A DNA stretch of 64,000 bases from an uncultured Chloroflexia bacterium (lineage in GTDB: Bacteria > Chloroflexota > Dehalococcoidia > GIF9 > UBA5629). The position numbers and the translations under genes were made by a program. Of the stretch, positions 4,740-55,895 are shown piece by piece (position 1 is the stretch's first letter; each line of letters starts with the position of its first letter). Below the pieces are notes generated by a model that was given only the letters and a program-made list of their open reading frames with translations, had not been told where the DNA came from and did not search any database. Location: NCBI GenBank assembly GCA_963754385.1, contig CAVWGE010000004.1, forward strand, positions 118,780 to 182,779, in the 5' to 3' direction.

Positions 4740-6132
4740 CCACGAACTCTGTACCCTTGCCCAATGTGCTTTTTGCCATGATGTCGCCCCCATGAGCCAG
4801 GACTATCTGTCTGGCGATAGCCAGGCCCAAGCCAGCGCCAGCTTTGCCTGCCGAAGGGTCGGCCCGGTAGAAGCGTTCAAAGACATGCCGCAATTGCTCG
4901 CCAGGTATACCTGGTCCGGTATCAGTTACGACAATTTCGACGAAGCTGGGTTGTGGGTGTCGGGCGACGATGCTTACCTTGCCTCCGGAAGGGGTATGTT
5001 TCAAGGCATTGTCGAGCAAGTTGCTGAAGACCTGCTCCAAGCGGTCGATATCACCGGTGACAGGCGGCAAAGGCTCAATGTCTGTTCTCAGTTGTATGTT
5101 TTTTTCTTCTGCCCGAATTAGGAAAATCTCATGACACTGCTGCAGAAGGTCTTTCAAATCTACAGACTCCTTAACCATCGTGATCTGGCCTGATTCAAGT
5201 CTGGAAAACTCGAGCAGTTCCTCCACAAGCCGCATCATGCGCTTGGACTCGTCCTCAATGACACTAGCAGCTTTAAGTCGGGCCTTTTTATCTTTGGCAG
5301 TTCCATCGACTATAGCCTGGGCAAATCCCTTGATGGAGGTGAGTGGGCTTCTTAGCTCGTGGGAGGCATCAGCTACGAAGTCGCGCAGCATTTGCTGCGA
5401 GCTTTTTACCTGCTTTGCCATCTGGTTAAAGCTTGTGGCCAGACCTTTGACCTCTTTAGGGCCGGCCACTGGAACCTCTTGTTCATAGTTACCGCGGGCT
5501 ATTTCTTCGGCGGCGTTTGTAACGCGTCGGATAGGAACATACATGGAGCGAGCCAGGAGAATGGCTATAAGTATGGAGACGGCTAAGGCGGCAAGTCCTG
5601 CCCAGAGGAAAGGTTTAGCAAAGTCAACCCAAATGGCTAGAGCCTCCCGGCGAGGTATAGCCAGAACCAGAGTTTCTGGGGGGGTGGAGGGGTCTGGAGG
5701 TCTGAACAATCCGACAATGGGGTGGGCGACGAATATAAATCTTTCTCCACTAGGTGTGACGTAGATTCCGACATAAGGTGTTGGCATGCCGGGGGGTGGT
5801 TTTTCAATTTCCAGCTTTGAGGGTGGTATCCAGGAACTATCCTCGGGGATTGCCTGTCTGATAATGACATCTTGAGCGTCCAGTAGAAAGATGTACGTGC
5901 CCGTTTCCTGTGACATCTCCTCCAGATTGGTCCATGCTTGGTTCAGGGAAACTTGACCTCTGGCTGCTGCTCTAAACTGGACGTAGATGGGCAGGGCAGT
6001 GTCGGCCAGGCGTGCCATTGCCAGTCTGTTGAGCTGGTCACCGAGCAGAACTATCAGGGAAACGGCGACTATGCTTAGACATAAGACGATGATTAAAATG
6101 TAGGTGAGAATAAGGCGTGTACGCAGGCTCAT
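4690..6132 (-). CDS. Sensor histidine kinase (HAMP-HisKA-HATPase)
   Basis: N-terminal TM segment, H-box (ADASHELRSPLTSI) and G-boxes (TDTGPGIP, GLGLAIARQIV). The 3' end overlaps nth convergently by 50 nt. Confidence 0.85.
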   Translation of the reverse strand: MSLRTRLILTYILIIVLCLSIVAVSLIVLLGDQLNRLAMARLADTALPIYVQFRAAARGQVSLNQAWTNLEEMSQETGTYIFLLDAQDVIIRQAIPEDSSWIPPSKLEIEKPPPGMPTPYVGIYVTPSGERFIFVAHPIVGLFRPPDPSTPPETLVLAIPRREALAIWVDFAKPFLWAGLAALAVSILIAILLARSMYVPIRRVTNAAEEIARGNYEQEVPVAGPKEVKGLATSFNQMAKQVKSSQQMLRDFVADASHELRSPLTSIKGFAQAIVDGTAKDKKARLKAASVIEDESKRMMRLVEELLEFSRLESGQITMVKESVDLKDLLQQCHEIFLIRAEEKNIQLRTDIEPLPPVTGDIDRLEQVFSNLLDNALKHTPSGGKVSIVARHPQPSFVEIVVTDTGPGIPGEQLRHVFERFYRADPSAGKAGAGLGLAIARQIVLAHGGDIMAKSTLGKGTEFVVRLPVHSTSAPQTSHS

Positions 6133-11752: not shown

Positions 11753-13288
11753 CTACTCCATAGGGGCGGCTGCTTGAGTGCCCTTCTGAAGGCGTAATGG
11801 AAGGAAAAAAGCCGGTATTACGCCAATTGAAATGATTATCGCCGATATAATATATTCCGTCTGAAAGGCAAAAACCGCGGCTCTTGCACTAGCCAATAGA
11901 TAGAGCAGGTAGACCGCTGTCTGCCTGGCTACCTCCAACGTCTGCCCCGCTTGCATAAGTATGACTTGTACCATTGAAATAAAATGCATGGTCTCGGAAG
12001 AACTGGGAGTAAGTGTCTGAGAGATGACGGCGAGGTTTGTTTTCTGGAAATTGGAAAGCATAGTAGCAAAGATGGCAATGCCGAGCGAAGCGAAAACAGT
12101 CCGGCTAACGTTCATTATCGACGAGGCTTGCGCCGTCATTTTCTGCTCTACTGAGGCTAAGGCATAGGTCATTACAGGCATCATGGCCAGCCCTATTCCC
12201 ATGCTTCTGACGAAAAGCATCAACCTTAGCAGATTATCCGGGGTGGTTACGTCTACAGTACGCATCCAAAAAGTGGCGGCACCCGCTACAATTAGCCCGG
12301 CCACAACCGGTATCTTGGGTCCTATTTTGTCATAAAGGCGTCCAGCCAGCGGCATAGTGACAATCGAGCCGAAAACGGCGGGGAGCATCAGTATGCCAGT
12401 CTCCAATGCTGTCAGGCCCCGAACGTTCTGTAGAAAGAGTGGCAGTAGAAAAACAATAGAAAAGAGGCCTATTGTGGTTACAAAAGTCAATCCTGTAGCC
12501 ATCGAGAAGCCACGGTTTTTGAATATACGAAGGTCAAGCATTGGCTGCGCTGATCGCAGTTCCAGCGTAATCCAAGTTATAAGGCAGATTCCACCCAGTA
12601 CCAACAGCCCCATGATGCGCACATCGTCCCATCCCCAGGTAGGAGCATAAGAAAGAGCATAAAGTACTGAACTGAATCCCATAGCCGCGAGCGCGAATCC
12701 TTTAAAATCGAAGCCTGCCGGCATCGCTGGAGTCTCCTGAAGCCAGGCCAAGCCCAGTAGAATGGCTACAAGCACTACGGGCACGTTCACATAGAAACAC
12801 ATGCGCCACGACCAATCGGTTACCAGATAGCCGCCGAGGGTTGGACCTATGGCGGGCCCAAGCATCATAGGGATACCGAAGATAGCCATAGCTGTGCCGC
12901 GCTGTTCGGATGGCACATTGAGAAAAAGCAGAGTCATGGCTGTCGGAGTGAGAAGACCACCGGCCAGACCCTGTAATATGCGGAATATTATCAGCGAGTC
13001 TGCGTTCCAGGAGAGACCGCATAAAATCGATCCAAATAGGAAACTTGCCTGGCTAAATATGTAGACCCTTTTGGTGCCGAAACGGTTACACAGGAAGGCG
13101 GCTGCCGGCGTAGTAATTGCTGTCGCCATTAAATATGCGGAAATAATAAGCTGGGCATGGTCTGTAGGAACATTGAAGACCGCCATGATATGCGGCAAGG
13201 CAATGTTCATAATTGTCTGGTCGAGTATGACCATGAAGGTGCCGGCTACGGCAACCAGTAAGATTTTCCACTGAGTAGTCTGTGGCAT
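11753..13288 (-). CDS. MFS drug:H+ antiporter (14-TMS EmrB/QacA-like)
   Basis: 511 aa with about 14 hydrophobic segments and MFS motifs; last gene of the tetR-adaptor-hlyD-MFS operon. Confidence 0.85.
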   Translation of the reverse strand: MPQTTQWKILLVAVAGTFMVILDQTIMNIALPHIMAVFNVPTDHAQLIISAYLMATAITTPAAAFLCNRFGTKRVYIFSQASFLFGSILCGLSWNADSLIIFRILQGLAGGLLTPTAMTLLFLNVPSEQRGTAMAIFGIPMMLGPAIGPTLGGYLVTDWSWRMCFYVNVPVVLVAILLGLAWLQETPAMPAGFDFKGFALAAMGFSSVLYALSYAPTWGWDDVRIMGLLVLGGICLITWITLELRSAQPMLDLRIFKNRGFSMATGLTFVTTIGLFSIVFLLPLFLQNVRGLTALETGILMLPAVFGSIVTMPLAGRLYDKIGPKIPVVAGLIVAGAATFWMRTVDVTTPDNLLRLMLFVRSMGIGLAMMPVMTYALASVEQKMTAQASSIMNVSRTVFASLGIAIFATMLSNFQKTNLAVISQTLTPSSSETMHFISMVQVILMQAGQTLEVARQTAVYLLYLLASARAAVFAFQTEYIISAIIISIGVIPAFFLPLRLQKGTQAAAPME

Positions 13289-45571: not shown

Positions 45572-45647
45572 GAAGTTGTAGCTCAGTTGGGAGTGCGTTT
45601 GATTTGCAGTAAAAAGGTAGCGGGTTCGAATCCCATCAGCTGCACTA
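45572..45647 (+). pseudogene. Degenerate duplicate of tRNA-Ala (anticodon-position TGC, 3' CTA), likely pseudo-tRNA
   Basis: 76-nt cloverleaf-alignable copy of the 46507 tRNA, including about 12 bp of shared 5' flank (gactttttgg). It carries mismatches in the acceptor (2-71 A.G), D (12-23 T.T), anticodon (30-40 G.A) and T (50-64 C.A) stems, A3-T70 instead of the alanine G3-U70 identity pair, and CTA instead of CCA. Confidence 0.55.
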
Positions 45648-46506: not shown

Positions 46507-46582
46507 GGGGCTGTAGCTCAATTGGGAGAGCGTTTGACTGGCAGTCAAAAGGTAGTGGGTTCGAATCCCATCAGCTCCACCA
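46507..46582 (+). tRNA. tRNA-Ala (anticodon GGC)
   Basis: Folded by hand: 7-bp acceptor stem with the G3-U70 alanine identity pair, D stem gctc/gagc, anticodon loop ctGGCag, T arm gtggg-ttcgaat-cccat, discriminator A, encoded CCA. Total 76 nt. Confidence 0.9.
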
Positions 46583-46668
46583 GTAACCTTCCTAAGGCTA
46601 ATATCAATTCAAATCACCTTTCGACTAGCGAAAGTCCCAATACGCAATTAGCTATCCCATTACACCGT

Positions 46669-47565
46669 TTGATTGAAGGATTTCTGTTATCCTGCAAAGT
46701 AGAGAACAAGTCTCCTGCCACAATAAGCTTCTACAAGAACATCCTCGGTAAGTTCGAATGGTATCTCAGTAAATTCGGTATTGAAACGATTGATGCCAGT
46801 ATAATCAGGAACTTTCTAGGATACGTAAAAGACACTGAAAATAGATGGGATAGCACTAATGCGAGAGCTAATAGGATGGTTTCTCCTACAACAGTAAAAA
46901 GCTATTACATCAGTCTATCTGCCTTATTTACCTGGGCAATTGAAGAGCAGTTAATCACGTCTAATCCCATGGCTACAGTGAAGAGGCCTAAGTTACCCAA
47001 TAAATCAGTAAAAGGATGTGAACCTGAGACTTTAAAGATATTATTAAACGCTTTTAATGGTATGAGTTTGAATGATTTACGCAATAAAGCTATGCTCCTC
47101 ATGTTCTTAGATACTGGCTTAAGGTTATCTGAACTTGCAGGTCTGACTTTATCTGATATCAATATTGAGAAAGGCATCATCAAAGTCATTGGTAAAGGCA
47201 ATAAAGAAAGATACGCTAGAATAGGAGTCAAGACACAGAAAGCATTATGGAATTATTTAGCTCATAGACCAGTGGAAAAGGAGTATGTATGGTTGGGAAA
47301 AGGCTATGGCAAAATGACAGTAGATGGCATTGCTCTTGTTATTAGAAACTTGGGTAAGAGATTAGGGATTAGATTGTCACCGCATAGGTTGAGACATAGT
47401 TTTGCTATAATCTTCCTAAGGAACGGAGCTAATTCGTTTGAGCTACAGATAGCGTTAGGCCACACTACCTTAGAAATGACCAGGAGATATACACAGGCAT
47501 TAGGTTTTGATGATGTGTTCAAGAGGCATGTGGTGGCGAGTCCGGTAGATAGATTGATACGTTAG
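46669..47565 (+). CDS. Tyrosine-type site-specific integrase
   Basis: N-terminal SAM-like core-binding domain (LIEGFLLSCKVENKSPATISFYKN) and catalytic domain with R..(HRLRHSFA)..Y (RRY). The track ORF starts inside the tRNA; start moved to an in-frame TTG at 46669 because no ATG is available, so the boundary is approximate. Confidence 0.8.
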   Translation: MIEGFLLSCKVENKSPATISFYKNILGKFEWYLSKFGIETIDASIIRNFLGYVKDTENRWDSTNARANRMVSPTTVKSYYISLSALFTWAIEEQLITSNPMATVKRPKLPNKSVKGCEPETLKILLNAFNGMSLNDLRNKAMLLMFLDTGLRLSELAGLTLSDINIEKGIIKVIGKGNKERYARIGVKTQKALWNYLAHRPVEKEYVWLGKGYGKMTVDGIALVIRNLGKRLGIRLSPHRLRHSFAIIFLRNGANSFELQIALGHTTLEMTRRYTQALGFDDVFKRHVVASPVDRLIR

Positions 47566-47779
47566 ACTATGATGCGGTAGAGGCACATAAGATATCATCG
47601 CCCATTGATAGCCTCAAATCTTGACTGTATTGTGATAGCAAACCCAACTTAAGAAATGGTATAAATATTGGGGCAGGTCATCATGAGTAGCGATACAATA
47701 ATCTATACAATAATCTTGAGTAGCGAACTATATGCTAAGTCAGCGTCATTTATAAAAGTAAAGGCCGGTACTGAAAGTC

Positions 47780-48463: not shown

Positions 48464-48500
48464 TATTATAAATCAGTCCTTAGTCTCTGTACATACCTTT

Positions 48501-48533
48501 GACCTGCCCCCAATACTTATACCACTTCTTAAC
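48501..48533. repeat. R repeat copy 1 (gacctgcccccaatacttataccacttctta)
   Basis: One of four 30-33-bp near-identical copies (48501, 48835, 51335, 55769). The reverse complement reads GTGGTATAAGTATTGGG, an extended -10-like motif, positioned 6-40 bp upstream of minus-strand ORFs. Confidence 0.55.
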
Positions 48534-48566
48534 AAATACTCATAAGGACGACAAATCAAAGCAATT

Positions 48567-48818: not shown

Positions 48819-48834
48819 TACAATTTCCTATAGT

Positions 48835-48867
48835 GACCTGCTCCCAATACTTATACCACTTCCTAAT
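48835..48867. repeat. R repeat copy 2
   Basis: gacctgctcccaatacttataccacttcctaat, 16 bp upstream (minus strand) of the GIY-YIG start. Confidence 0.55.
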
Positions 48868-48894
48868 CTAGTCCCACAAGCACAATAGCCTCAG

Positions 48895-48966
48895 GCGCAG
48901 GCTTTGGGATTTGATGATGTATTCAAGAGGCATGTGATGGCGTCACCGGTGGATAGGTTGATGTAG
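48895..48966 (+). pseudogene. Integrase 3'-terminal remnant b (..QALGFDDVFKRHVMASPVDRLM*)
   Basis: About 72 bp that are roughly 85% identical to the last 24 codons plus stop of the 46669 integrase. An in-frame TAG lies 9 codons upstream, so no upstream integrase body remains. Confidence 0.6.
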
Positions 48967-49678: not shown

Positions 49679-49844
49679 AGTTTACCCCCTTATTTAGAAT
49701 TGTCTGGACTATTAGAATCACCTGTAGTGCTCCCATGTTACATCCCTATATATTAGCCGTCAACGAGAAGCAGTTAGTAATTTGTAAATACTAATAAAAT
49801 TGAGGATCTGCCTTCGGGTCAGTTACGTAATGGATAATTCGATA

Positions 49845-49913
49845 GCATTAGGATTTGATGATGTGTTTAAGAGGCATGTGCTGGCTAGTCCGGTGGATAG
49901 GCTGGTGAGGTAA
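49845..49913 (+). pseudogene. Integrase 3'-terminal remnant c (..IALGFDDVFKRHVLASPVDRLVR*)
   Basis: 69-bp homologue of the integrase C-terminus plus stop, isolated in non-coding DNA. Confidence 0.6.
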
Positions 49914-50111
49914 GGTAACTGAGTGTGTTCGACGTCAGCAAAAATTGGACACATTGTGGATACTAGGTAATGGACAGTCTGGGGTTTGCTGCTGCCGCCT
50001 GAGAAGACTATTGCTGATGGATGCAGAAATACCGCAGTTCATTCAACATTAAGGCAGAGATTTGAAAGGAGTCCAAGACCCCCCTCATCTCACTACCCGT
50101 ACCTCTTTAGC

Positions 50112-50564
50112 TTACTCAGATGGTTGCTTTTTGGCCTTGAGCCTTCTCGCCTCCTGATCCTCGGCTATCGCCTGTTCTCTAGTCAAGTCGGCTTTCCTTC
50201 TCGCCTGCTTTTTGACTAGTCGCCCAGCTTCCTCAGTAGCGCGCTTCTCTGATCCCTTGGCTTTCCTTGCTTTCAAAGCCTTTTCAATCGCCTCTTCTCT
50301 AGTCAAGTCGGCTTTCCTTCTCGCCTGCTTTTTGACTAGTCGCCCAGCTTCCTCAGTAGCACGCTTCTCTGATCCCTTGGCTTTCCTTGCTTTCAAAGCC
50401 TTTTCAATCGCCTCTTCTCTAGTCAAGTCGGCTTTCCTTCTCGCCTGCTTTTTGACTAGTCGCCCAGCTTCCTCAGTAGCGCGCTTCTCTGATCCCCTGG
50501 CCTCCTTTAGTGATTGTTCTTCTTGGTCTCTCATCGTTCTACCTATCAACATTGAGATAATCAT
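50112..50564 (-). CDS. Basic tandem-repeat protein (three 40-aa repeats KARKAKGSEKRATEEAGRLVKKQARRKADLTREEAIEKAL)
   Basis: ORF spans three near-perfect 120-bp DNA repeats. Lys/Arg/Glu-rich helical repeats with a short hydrophobic N-terminus. Coding status is supported only by the maintained frame across the repeats. Confidence 0.5.
   Translation of the reverse strand: MIISMLIGRTMRDQEEQSLKEARGSEKRATEEAGRLVKKQARRKADLTREEAIEKALKARKAKGSEKRATEEAGRLVKKQARRKADLTREEAIEKALKARKAKGSEKRATEEAGRLVKKQARRKADLTREQAIAEDQEARRLKAKKQPSE
50161..50520. repeat. Near-perfect 3 x 120-bp tandem direct repeat
   Basis: Units 50161-50280, 50281-50400 and 50401-50520 are identical except for about 1 nt internally and divergent outer edges. 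Confidence 0.85.
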
Positions 50565-50805
50565 GGAACCGGCGGTAAATCACTTTGTTGCAGCAACTTG
50601 CCCCAAATTATTGTACTACCTTTTATGTTAGGGTTGTCAAGACATGAACGGTTAGTACAGTGTACTCCACCCTATTAATCACGCGACCAGTAAGTTCGCT
50701 ACATTATGGCTCAAGAATTGTGGAGACAGCTTGATGCCGCAGAGGCTATTGGGACATACTACACTGATGATGACGAATAGGTACTGTCAAGCGGTAGGAT
50801 GCTTG

Positions 50806-50859
50806 GATGCGGTGGAAGCGCATAAGAAGTATTCACCTATTGATAACATTAAAATATAG
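50806..50859 (+). pseudogene. Divergent integrase C-terminus-like remnant f (DAVEAHKKYSPIDNIKI*)
   Basis: Shares the pattern D-x-V-x-x-H-x-x-x-SP[IV]D-x-[IL]-x-[IR]-stop with the integrase tail (DDVFKRHVVASPVDRLIR*). Starts the 560-bp segmental duplication. Confidence 0.4.
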
Positions 50860-50958
50860 CTTCTTCATATCTGGACTAGTTCTCCGGGGTGCAATCACTC
50901 AAAATACCCCTCGTCAATCCACTACTGCTCAATTTAACCCTGTATTGATCTAATTTCC

Positions 50959-51330
50959 TCAAGCTTCTGTTTCCTCTATATTAAGCTCTTCATCCCCAGA
51001 TACCTCGGTTAAACTCTCTTGCTCTGTTTCTACCTCTTCCCTCCCTTGCTCTTGATAGGCTGAAAAGTACTCTGCGATATTAATGTCACGATAGTACACT
51101 TCACAGACCAACCTATTGTGTTGTACACCGTCCGGTGATCCCAATTCAACCTTCTTGTTGTGGATAAGGCCAGAGAGCTTTTGTTCGACAGCTATCGCTC
51201 CTTTCCCACTCTTCGGAGCAGTGTAACCTTTCACTTGCACGAGATTTCCTGTTTCATCTCCGAGTTCCCACTTGGGAGATACCTCGAAAGTGTTTCCGTC
51301 AATAACTGCTACTACGGTGAATGTCTCCAA
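50959..51330 (-). CDS. SNase-like (thermonuclease/OB-fold) protein, probably non-catalytic, with acidic C-terminal tail
   Basis: VIDGNTFEV and VQVKGYTAPKSG align to the SNase DGDT and RLxGIDTPE regions, but with Asp-to-Asn and Asp-to-Tyr substitutions at metal ligands. TTG start; paralogue at 55393. Confidence 0.5.
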   Translation of the reverse strand: METFTVVAVIDGNTFEVSPKWELGDETGNLVQVKGYTAPKSGKGAIAVEQKLSGLIHNKKVELGSPDGVQHNRLVCEVYYRDINIAEYFSAYQEQGREEVETEQESLTEVSGDEELNIEETEA

Positions 51331-51334
51331 TACT

Positions 51335-51366
51335 GACCTGCCCCCAATAGTTATACCACTTCTTAT
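51335..51366. repeat. R repeat copy 3
   Basis: gacctgcccccaatagttataccacttctta, 5 bp upstream (minus strand) of the SNase-like gene start. Confidence 0.55.
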
Positions 51367-51395
51367 GTTAGTCTACAAGAACAATAGCTTAGGAG

Positions 51396-51470
51396 CAGGC
51401 ATTGGGGTTTGATGATGTGTTTAAAAGACATGTAATGGCTAGTCCGGTCGACAAACCGAAGAGGTCATAA
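51396..51470 (+). pseudogene. Integrase 3'-terminal remnant d (..ALGFDDVFKRHVMASPVDKPKRS*)
   Basis: Homologous to the integrase tail through SPVD, then divergent; preceded by the same roughly 40-bp spacer sequence as remnant b. Confidence 0.55.
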
Positions 51471-53340: not shown

Positions 53341-53520
53341 CAGCTTAACGGTGACTTGTAGAACTTCAGGCTATATTGGAAAGTAACTGACCCGCTTGTG
53401 CTTAGCTACTGACCAGCCTGTAAAGCTTCAGACTATCCCCAAAGTTAACTGACCTGGTATGTCCTAGCTAGTAACTCGCTTGTAATGCTTCAGGCAATCC
53501 TCAAAGGTTATACTTCTGGT
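53341..53520. repeat. Degenerate roughly 62-bp tandem repeat array (about 3 units) in non-coding DNA
   Basis: Units of form aactgacc-gcttgt-cttagct / actgacc-gcctgtaaagcttcag-c-at-c-caaagtt recur three times with substitutions. Confidence 0.5.
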
Positions 53521-55202: not shown

Positions 55203-55232
55203 GCCAGTCCGGTAGATAGGCTGGTACGTTAG
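55203..55232 (+). pseudogene. Integrase 3'-terminal remnant e (..ASPVDRLVR*)
   Basis: 30 bp matching the last 9 codons plus stop of the integrase. Confidence 0.5.
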
Positions 55233-55239
55233 AGACTTA

Positions 55240-55293
55240 GATGCAGTGGAAAGTCATAAGAGGTATGGGCCAGTGGATAATATTAAAATATAG
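55240..55293 (+). pseudogene. Divergent integrase C-terminus-like remnant g (DAVESHKRYGPVDNIKI*)
   Basis: Paralogue of remnant f; begins the second copy of the 560-bp segmental duplication. Confidence 0.4.
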
Positions 55294-55392
55294 CTATGTT
55301 ATGTCGGGACTAGTTCTCTTGGGTGCAATCACTTAAAATACCCCTCGTCAATCCACTACTGCTCAATTTAGCCCTGTATTGATCTAATTTCC

Positions 55393-55776
55393 TCAAGCTT
55401 CTGTCTCCTCTATATTTAGCTCTTCATCCCCAGATACCTCGGTTAAACTCTCTCGCTCTGTTTCTACATCTTCCCTCGCTTGCTCTTGATAGGCTGAAAA
55501 ATACTCTGCGATATTAATACCGCGATAGTATACTTCACAGATCAACCTATTGTGTTGTACGCCGTCCGGTGATCCCAATTCAACCTTCTTGTTGTGGATA
55601 AGGCCAGAGAGCTTTTGTTCGACAGCCATCGCTCCTTTCCCACTCTTCGGAGCAGTGTAACCTTTCGCTTGCACGAGATTTCCTGTTTCGTCTCCGAGTT
55701 CCCACTTGGGGGATACCTCGAAAGTGTTTCCGTCAATAACTGCTACTACGGTGAATGTCTCCAATACTGACCTGCC
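55393..55776 (-). CDS. SNase-like protein, paralogue of the 50959 ORF
   Basis: About 93% identical to the first copy over the shared length. The track ORF (to 55818) reads through R repeat copy 4 to an upstream ATG, so the true start is uncertain. Confidence 0.5.
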   Translation of the reverse strand, partial: GRSVLETFTVVAVIDGNTFEVSPKWELGDETGNLVQAKGYTAPKSGKGAMAVEQKLSGLIHNKKVELGSPDGVQHNRLICEVYYRGINIAEYFSAYQEQAREDVETERESLTEVSGDEELNIEETEA

Positions 55777-55794
55777 CCCAATAGTTATACCACT
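55769..55794. repeat. R repeat copy 4
   Basis: gacctgcccccaatagttataccact, followed 50 bp later by the attR tRNA fragment. Confidence 0.55.
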
Positions 55795-55843
55795 GAAGGT
55801 GATTATACCACTAAGCATTTTGTAACGGAATGTCTCGTTTGAC

Positions 55844-55895
55844 TCATAGTCAAAAGGTAGTGGGTTCGAATCCCATCAGCTCCACCATCTTTGGG
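55844..55895 (+). repeat. attR: partial direct repeat of tRNA-Ala 3' portion (anticodon stem to CCA)
   Basis: cgtttgact[cat]agtcaaaaggtagtgggttcgaatcccatcagctccacca matches tRNA positions 25-76 except for 3 nt in the anticodon loop. The 40-nt 3' part is identical, so crossover must lie 3' of the loop. Confidence 0.8.

Follow-up and report, generated by a model that had tools for sequence, protein, structure and literature searches.

A family of modular, basic helical proteins encoded by in-frame 120-nt tandem repeats in Dehalococcoidales

Is a nearly perfect 120-bp tandem repeat in the genome of an uncultured Dehalococcoidia bacterium part of a real gene, and if so, what kind of protein does it encode and how does its repeat number change? 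The stretch analysed is 64,000 nt of contig CAVWGE010000004.1 (referred to as the window), and the repeat lies on its minus strand in an open reading frame (ORF) of 150 codons at 50112-50564. Comparison with homologues shows that the locus is a genuine protein-coding gene, and the explanation that we favour overall, with moderate confidence, is that it belongs to an undescribed family whose product is a modular basic helix and a putative binder of RNA or ribosomes.

The repeat itself is unambiguous. Tandem Repeats Finder places a single strong array at 50167-50501, with 2.8 copies of a 120-nt period, 98% matches, no indels and a score of 649, in frame with the 150-aa ORF, and across 50167-50376 every base is identical to the one 120 nt further on except at 50174, 50241 and 50361; a repeat of such length and identity cannot have arisen by chance. 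In the sense register, unit 1 occupies 50373-50492 on the minus strand (120 nt, SEKRATEEAGRLVKKQARRKADLTREEAIEKALKARKAKG), unit 2 (50253-50372, minus strand) differs from it by one synonymous base (CGT for CGC), and unit 3 (50133-50252, minus strand) is the same as unit 1 for its first 78 nt (50175-50252) and departs from it at 18 of the last 42. By alignment, this 42-nt segment (50133-50174, REQAIAEDQEARRLKA) is the older, diverged tail of the ancestral C-terminal unit. What the array holds is two full near-identical units plus the first 78 nt of a third, or about 2.65-2.8 copies. The head-to-tail, in-frame 120-bp repetition proposed in the initial annotation is confirmed, but its count of three near-identical copies is too high; its units (50161-50280, 50281-50400 and 50401-50520) are drawn out of register, with 6, 15 and 19 differences between them rather than about one, and the 40-aa peptide that it gave as threefold occurs once exactly and in two partial copies. 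Each unit carries a Gly/Pro position, a candidate helix kink.

The translation start is probably the ATG at 50534 rather than the one at 50564, where the gene had first been taken to begin. The probable coding sequence, 50112-50534 on the minus strand, encodes 140 aa: MRDQEEQSLKEARG, three units and KKQPSE followed by the stop. Its 14-codon N-terminal cap (50493-50534) is kept across the family, with M1, E5, E6 and Q7 nearly invariant, and the C-terminal KKQPSE plus stop (50112-50132) was placed by alignment with homologues. All homologues begin M(R/T)DQEEQSLKEA in the alignment, equivalent to ATG 50534. Among 60 distinct complete genes, the set used for all counts of unit number, Shine-Dalgarno motifs and antisense frames, a Shine-Dalgarno motif stands 5' of the equivalent ATG in 59, and GGAGG lies 7-9 nt before the start in 50; the window shares with L034, its closest complete relative, the weakened variant GATAGGT, which in the window is at 50541-50547, 6 nt 5' of the ATG (family consensus GGGAGGT). 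The remaining in-frame 5' extension of the called ORF (50535-50564, minus strand) is probably untranslated. Its ATG (50562-50564) sits inside the conserved leader block CATGATTATC, and corresponding extensions of homologous ORFs differ in length among members; the peptide extensions of some called ORFs look conserved because the underlying non-coding DNA block is conserved. A ribosome-binding site had been suggested as something to look for 5' of 50564; that ATG proves to lie within a promoter-like block, and the Shine-Dalgarno-like motif precedes 50534 instead.

The flanks of the gene are conserved as well. A leader of ~60 nt is shared by both subfamilies and consists of AAGTGA, 17 nt, GATTAT, 22 nt including the Shine-Dalgarno motif, and the ATG; the promoter-like block within it (50557-50585, minus strand, with AAGTGA at 50580-50585 and GATTAT at 50557-50562) may function as a promoter, as its conservation suggests. 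The leader motif was found solely upstream of family genes, without a second copy in the window, and therefore gives no sign of a shared regulon. RNAalifold gave the leader RNA -1.87 kcal/mol with zero compensatory pairs, Rfam gave it no match, and consensus scans for sigma-70 promoters and intrinsic terminators returned nothing on the repeat gene's strand. About 60 nt 3' of the gene are likewise conserved, with a short hairpin and then a T-rich run, the stems differing among loci when compared by eye. In the window this flank (50060-50111, minus strand) contains GGGGUC-UUG-GACUCC at 50068-50082 followed by UUUCAAAU, a putative terminator to judge by its conservation. The repeat gene may thus be a compact unit with its own transcription.

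Selection on the reading frame points the same way. For 95 pairs of 100-aa genes, the median ratio of nonsynonymous to synonymous substitution rates (dN/dS) is 0.30 in the sense frame versus 0.42, 0.90 and 1.10 in the three antisense frames; by this measure the sense frame is under purifying selection. The 139-aa ORF on the opposite strand (50212-50631, plus strand), which the initial annotation had called spurious, does exist and deserves that description: it is unconserved, its dN/dS is not below that of the sense frame, and any antisense frame is fully open in at most one of the 60 genes. Given the dN/dS values and the lack of conservation, the openness of that strand is a by-product of K/R/E/A/Q codon usage.

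The gene has many relatives, almost all from one lineage. A word-indexed protein search found 27 homologues, mostly of exactly 100 aa, from metagenomes and from metagenome-assembled genomes (MAGs) of Dehalococcoidia and Chloroflexi; the family profile, run in an exhaustive HMMER search, recovered 164 cluster representatives at E<=1e-3, 100 of them at E<=1e-10, from Dehalococcoidales and other Chloroflexota MAGs and from metagenomes. A genome scan, with a narrower family alignment as query rather than the full one, returned 12 loci, 11 of them in Dehalococcoidales, Dehalococcoidia or other Chloroflexota MAGs; the twelfth is binned as Syntrophobacterales and encodes the upstream peptide extension seen in Dehalococcoidales contigs. 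A metagenome scan added 77 further loci. No Pfam or NCBIfam model matched any of 28 family members and no literature on such a repeat-protein family was found; the family is undescribed.

All members follow the same modular plan, namely the 14-aa N-cap, units of 40 aa and a conserved tail (...EQAIAE(A/D)QEARKLKAKKQPPE; in the family consensus, ...EQAIAE(A/D)QEARKLKAKKQ). The 60 complete genes encode 60 aa (three genes), ~100 aa (~20), ~140 aa (~18), 180 aa (10) or 220 aa (one), and 60, 100, 140, 180 and 220 aa correspond to one to five units. A second length variant (89, 129 or 169 aa), present in both subfamilies, has a first unit shorter by 11 residues, which are absent between two AREQA motifs, and length variants are separated only by steps of 40 or 11 codons. 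L034, which shares 93% identity with the window across leader, N-cap and unit 1, carries two units where the window has three. The variable copy number anticipated for this locus is thus a property of the whole family.

Several observations on individual members stand apart. P0001 and P0026 are labelled 'FtsY' in their source databases, labels that reflect composition only. In three database proteins (P0063, P0037 and P0162) the repeat protein is fused to other sequence, the partners presumably being an HRDC-like domain, an HflX N-terminus and a methylmalonyl-CoA mutase C-terminus; these fusions are probably gene-calling or assembly chimeras, and the HRDC fusion, if real, would be of interest for nucleic-acid binding. 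Family genes are frequently near mobile DNA: in L012 (4914-5909) an IS240/IS6-type DDE transposase lies directly 5' of a family member of 129 aa, in place of the conserved leader, and in L005 an IS110 transposase lies at the end of the contig.

How, then, did the units multiply and stay alike? In 23 two-unit proteins, the two units of a protein are 15-72% identical (mean 48%, protein level), and in most of them each unit is closest to the same-position unit of another protein; the duplication is therefore old. In the genes with three to five units, the 78-nt unit cores are 83-99% identical at the DNA level (0.99 in the window, 0.98 in L039 and 0.97 in L033), and homogenised cores also occur in some two-unit genes such as L013 (0.99). 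The cores average 0.907 identity within a gene, as against 0.772 between genes. The most telling comparison is with L001, a MAG contig 98% identical to the window at the repeat gene: unit position 43 is G in both L001 units and A in all three window units, and the homogenised tract ends at position 86 in L001 versus 78 in the window. As judged from these alignments, the pattern is that left by recurrent gene conversion and unequal exchange, and the proposal of recent expansion or concerted evolution is borne out by it. It is proposed that the ancestral gene had two diverged modules (100 aa) and that the window lineage would have gained its third unit by unequal recombination or slippage between them, after which gene conversion would keep the unit cores near-identical. 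The order of unit tails in the window (type 1, type 1, type 2) is the order expected from a single unequal crossover of the two ancestral units, and the same process could yield the one- to five-unit versions elsewhere in the family, each gain or loss altering the predicted helix by ~6 nm per unit. With a unit of 40 codons, any gain or loss alters the length of the protein and leaves the frame intact, so that on/off phase variation is excluded. The idea that the product is phase-variable was accordingly abandoned: the 120-nt unit is a multiple of three, variants differ by 40 or 11 codons, and the leader contains no repeat.

By composition and structure prediction, the product is a small cytoplasmic protein that is basic (pI ~10), about 50% charged and entirely alpha-helical. 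The 140-aa protein has an isoelectric point (pI) of 10.35, a net charge of +18, 51% charged residues and a grand average of hydropathy (GRAVY) of -1.5; it has Gly at 6 of 140 positions (4.3%) and large hydrophobic residues (L/I/V/M/F/W/Y) at 17 of 140, and its charged N-terminus (MRDQEEQ) includes neither a signal peptide nor a transmembrane segment. AlphaFold2 predicts an uninterrupted helix over residues 2-136 (mean local confidence, pLDDT, 89.5; predicted template-modelling score, pTM, 0.39) and a single helix over residues 3-96 of a two-unit member (pLDDT 91.5); these are monomer models with pTM 0.39-0.41, and the method cannot separate a single alpha-helix (SAH) from a coiled coil. The Lys/Arg/Glu-rich helical product of the initial annotation agrees with both composition and model. 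Pairs of E with K/R at i/i+4 are not enriched over shuffled sequences (20 versus 17.0 +/- 3.2 in the window protein, 12 versus 11.7 in P0008). The heptad signal (3.5) is absent from the top peaks in the spectra of single proteins (5.7, 2.85, 4.0 and 3.65), and in the profile of the 40-residue unit the harmonics that flank 3.5 have powers of 24.5 (3.64) and 1.7 (3.33). Wound at 40/11 = 3.64 residues per turn, the unit places its apolar residues on one half of the wheel, an amphipathic signal that is not significant.

The gene neighbourhood offers the only clue to function, and an indirect one. Neighbours were counted at 98 loci, many on contigs too short to show any. The most frequent are an RRM_1 RNA-binding protein (8-13 loci, usually 100-190 nt upstream on the same strand) and a treble-clef zinc finger of the zf_Tbcl type (PF13451, 8-12 loci), followed by a DEAD-box helicase (six loci), TypA/BipA (five loci, 149-151 nt upstream on the same strand), DegV (five loci) and a BON-domain protein (4-5 loci). 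RNA- or ribosome-linked genes make up the majority of these recurrent neighbours, and genes of this kind are tied to cold and stress adaptation in other bacteria. Binding to nucleic acid, raised in the initial annotation, would be compatible with the pI of 10.35 and with this neighbourhood. Our best guess, a tentative one drawn from composition and gene order, is an electrostatic RNA- or ribosome-associated stress protein, which would act as a non-specific binder of RNA or ribosomes in cold- or stress-type RNA metabolism and whose module number would set its binding reach or valency. As a separate observation, an internally repeated ORF of 145 aa (two copies of ...GKATGDIGKTGDVRVRIDNVETLRFKPSVDLKKGDSIR...) adjoins the family gene in 5-6 loci (L011 2602-3039, L013 and L014 ~5271-5711, L002 8379-8591); no Pfam match above threshold was found for it.

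A number of points weigh against a role in RNA or ribosome binding, and some against the gene model on which it builds. The neighbourhood is mixed, the BON and DegV genes pointing to membranes or lipids rather than RNA, and the shortness of many contigs limits what it can tell. AlphaFold2 confidently predicts single helices for many charged low-complexity sequences, and the pTM here is low; nor is the hydrophobic periodicity of the unit significant, no harmonic rising above the 95th percentile of shuffles. No known nucleic-acid-binding domain was detected in domain, PDB or Foldseek searches: neither the protein nor 28 family members rose above noise when scanned against Pfam, NCBIfam, PHROGs and PADLOC, a profile search of the PDB gave no match at E<=1, and Foldseek with the AlphaFold2 model against the PDB gave none at E<=10, a bare helix carrying little information for that method. 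The window copy, with its weakened Shine-Dalgarno motif among decaying mobile-element remnants, may be poorly expressed, and its unit number rests on one assembly, the contig of its closest relative, L001, breaking inside the repeat.

The RNA-binding proposal can be carried further, to a new bacterial class of RNA- or ribosome-associated stress proteins in which a basic helix like that of Lso2/CCDC124 would be length-tuned in 6-nm steps through recombination of 120-nt units and carried as a mobile, integrase-borne cassette. Such a cassette, delimited by the conserved 60-nt leader and the 3' hairpin, would have moved between genomes on minimal integrase elements. We regard this combination as a long shot; if true, it would mean that the reach or valency of binding varies heritably at the level of the population. 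A narrower candidate role, that of an excisionase or recombination directionality factor, was considered for a gene that abuts integrases in the window, in L001 and in L002-L004, and was rejected: most members are near RRM, TypA or DEAD-box genes without an integrase.

Among the alternatives, the one that survives best, although we think it unlikely, is that the protein is a protectant similar to hydrophilins or late embryogenesis abundant (LEA) proteins, or an amphipathic helix at the membrane surface, which would shield membranes or proteins under osmotic or cold stress, more units giving more coverage. The low GRAVY, the 51% charged residues, the hydrophilic tandem units of variable number, the apolar half of the 40/11 wheel and the adjacent genes for BON-domain (OsmY-type) proteins and DegV all suit such a function. 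Its difficulties are a Gly content under the 6% of the hydrophilin criterion, the want of a LEA or other Pfam match, an amphipathic periodicity no better than in shuffles, and RNA-linked neighbours that outnumber membrane-linked ones.

Less likely still is a role as structural spacer or ruler, or as coiled-coil oligomer, in which the caps would bind partners and the internal units would only set the distance between them. The termini are indeed the most conserved parts while internal unit number varies, the predicted helix is rigid and continuous, and length steps of only 40 or 11 residues roughly keep the helical phase; no partner is known, however, the 3.5-residue heptad is missing from the top hydrophobic spectral peaks, and large hydrophobic residues number merely 17 in 140.

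We give little credence to the possibility that the third unit, or the near-identity of the units, is a short-read mis-assembly across the 120-bp repeat. Assembly is error-prone where a repeat is longer than the k-mer, the contig of L001 stops precisely within the repeat, and the related contig L008 leaves the gene inside unit 2; yet many independent contigs from different samples have three to five units with the same architecture and lineage-specific unit differences, and the window array shows a unit-specific synonymous difference and a clean junction to the diverged tail. Hardly credible, finally, is a non-coding satellite (variable-number tandem repeat, VNTR) or decaying pseudogene in a mobile-element graveyard, its ORF an accident of repeat composition, for which one could cite the position between integrase remnants, the weakened GATAGGT, the truncated copy on L008 and the largely open antisense strand, but which has against it an intact ORF with conserved start and stop, a family dN/dS of 0.30, a sole difference between units here that is synonymous, the same GATAGGT in the intact two-unit L034 and more than 60 independent intact genes; the non-coding satellite of invariant copy number that the initial annotation had entertained is excluded.

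The setting of the gene in the window differs from that of most members of the family. It lies in an island of 9.3 kb that runs from the 3' half (46531-46582) of a tRNA-Ala(GGC) gene (46507-46582) to a 52-nt direct repeat at 55836-55887 that is 94% identical to that 3' half. A Xer-like tyrosine recombinase (~46642-47565, plus strand) adjoins the tRNA gene. The GC content of the island is lowered (0.41-0.47 in six 2-kb windows, 0.41-0.45 in four of them), and the GC skew is reversed across 48-56 kb. Everything expected of a tRNA-integrated island is found here: an integrase beside the tRNA, a repeat at the far border, a shift in composition and cargo that differs among relatives. L022 and L024 have the same borders with other cargo and no repeat gene, L024 with three tRNA-end repeats, and L021 likewise has different cargo between the same borders; the tRNA-Ala(GGC) locus is a hypervariable accretion site.

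Within the island, small cargo segments are each bracketed by remnants of integrase 3' ends on the plus strand, found at 47494-47558, 48898-48962, 49842-49906, 51396-51460 and 55203-55233 and also at 47568-47625, 50731-50859 and 55236-55290. These are of two sequence types. Differences between copies are mostly synonymous, and the point of 5' truncation is variable, leaving 33 to >120 nt across loci. The segment with the repeat gene (49907-50730) is flanked by two of them. One, the 65-nt remnant of the D3 family at 49842-49906, is convergent with the repeat gene and near-identical to the 3' end of the intact integrase of L001; the other, a C-terminal remnant at 50731-50859 on the opposite side of the gene, matches the window integrase at 51% over 37 aa (BLASTP, E = 1e-10). 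In L001 the same gene is directly beside the intact integrase, at the same tRNA and in the same backbone. The window has 2.3 kb more than L001, with PNPOx, GIY-YIG and TMEM175-like genes, and its backbone is 96-100% identical to that of L001 whereas the integrase is only 86-92% identical. With an integrase more divergent than the backbone, the window integrase is therefore a different allele that came with a newer element, the older one having decayed to 65 nt. The repeat gene is thus outside its usual neighbourhood here, carried as cargo by an old element in an integrase island built up by tandem accretion. Remnants and identities fit successive integration of related elements followed by decay, which leaves a recurring D4-junction-D3 unit unaccounted for.

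Integron-like interpretations were rejected. The boundary repeats fold no better than shuffles (z -0.5 to +1.5) and no attC was found, which disposes of an integron gene cassette; the window enzyme scores 49.7 bits against a model cutoff of 265 for an integron integrase; and an integron-like array with the integrase 3' end as its site finds neither attC-like folding nor fixed remnant 5' ends, and has against it the lower identity to L001 of the integrase than of the backbone.

Further features of the island and its surroundings were noted in passing. A 50-nt element, TGACCTGCCCCCAATA(C/G)TTATACCACTT, lies directly 5' of minus-strand cargo genes, at 48500-48549, 48834-48883, 51334-51383 and 55768-55817 in the window and at 12873-12912, 13078-13127 and 13743-13782 in L022; on the minus strand it resembles a -10 box plus a Shine-Dalgarno motif, and in four places, three with a similar 14-nt junction, it is joined to a D3 remnant in a composite of ~128 nt found in two genomes. 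A duplicated segment (50802-51101 and 55236-55535, 89% identity over 300 nt), with a 93%-identical copy in the L022 island, encodes the minus-strand ORFs 50959-51330 and 55393-55818 (123 and 141 aa), which have an acidic C-terminal tail and no sequence match in Pfam, PHROGs, PADLOC or the PDB. An intergenic 62-nt tandem repeat (53380-53506, 2.1 copies, 77% match) is downstream of a gene for a transporter of the major facilitator superfamily. Beside the island, the tRNA-Ala genes TGC (45572-45645) and GGC (46507-46582) are 935 nt apart with a methyltransferase gene on the opposite strand between them, and they share ~20 nt of similar upstream sequence (a 94-nt repeat, 86% identity).

Dehalococcoidales are abundant and mostly uncultured bacteria of the subsurface and sediments, and what would otherwise be a raw 'hypothetical protein', mislabelled as FtsY in two sources, now has a place in a coherent, lineage-specific family with modular rules. 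The natural series of one to five units could serve to relate helix length to function, and to study the homogenisation of coding repeats by recombination in streamlined genomes. Should the link with RRM, DEAD-box and TypA genes be functional, the protein would be an unstudied component of RNA or ribosome stress handling in Dehalococcoidales. For annotation of MAGs it matters that the repeat breaks short-read assemblies at the gene, as in L001 and L008.

How does this system compare with known ones? For the island, the closest parallel is the set of tandem genomic islands at ssrA in Dehalococcoides, which depend on the serine recombinase DsiB (McMurdie et al. 2011, PMC3146451). There as here, small islands accrete at the 3' end of a small-RNA gene with direct-repeat borders and strain-variable cargo (PMC3146451). 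The island in the window differs in its target, tRNA-Ala(GGC), in its Xer-like tyrosine recombinase and in its older integrases, which are cut to 3' remnants of 33-120 nt.

For the repeat, the obvious comparison is with the streptococcal alpha C protein and the M proteins, secreted and wall-anchored antigens with large in-frame tandem repeats, a signal peptide and an LPXTG motif. The repeat gene resembles them in its near-identical coding units of at least 100 bp, in frame-keeping changes of unit number, in the homogenisation of units and in a largely alpha-helical product; unlike them, the protein begins with a charged N-terminus and lacks both signal peptide and transmembrane segment, and its host is a free-living anaerobe, for which immune evasion is an implausible driver. 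Bacterial hydrophilins and LEA-like repeat proteins, such as GsiB of Bacillus subtilis and the group-3 LEA proteins, are built of units of 11 or 20 aa, and hydrophilins are defined by a hydrophilicity index >1 and Gly >6%. The repeat protein is likewise small and very hydrophilic, with tandem units of variable number and genes near stress genes, but it has no sequence or profile similarity to them, has a 40-aa unit and is strongly basic; its GRAVY satisfies the hydrophilicity part of the definition, and the Gly content of 4.3% and the missing LEA Pfam match speak against membership.

The long, uninterrupted charged helix predicted here recalls ER/K SAH domains, domain II of TolA and the A-domain of FtsY. 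It departs from ER/K SAH in that opposite-charge pairs at i/i+4 are no more frequent than in shuffles, and an identity with FtsY, the signal recognition particle (SRP) receptor, was rejected: no SRP54-type NG GTPase or other FtsY domain was found in the 28 members, and the proteins have only 60-220 aa. Lso2 and CCDC124 are eukaryotic ribosome-preservation factors with long basic helices. As an analogy only, the repeat protein is like them in its size (~90-140 aa), in its basic, K/R/E/A/Q-rich composition and predicted long helices, and in having genes for TypA/BipA, DEAD-box and RRM proteins nearby; it differs in showing no detectable homology and in coming from another domain of life. Set beside these systems, the genetic behaviour of the locus, an in-frame coding VNTR with concerted evolution, is of a known kind and well documented; the protein family that it builds is undescribed.

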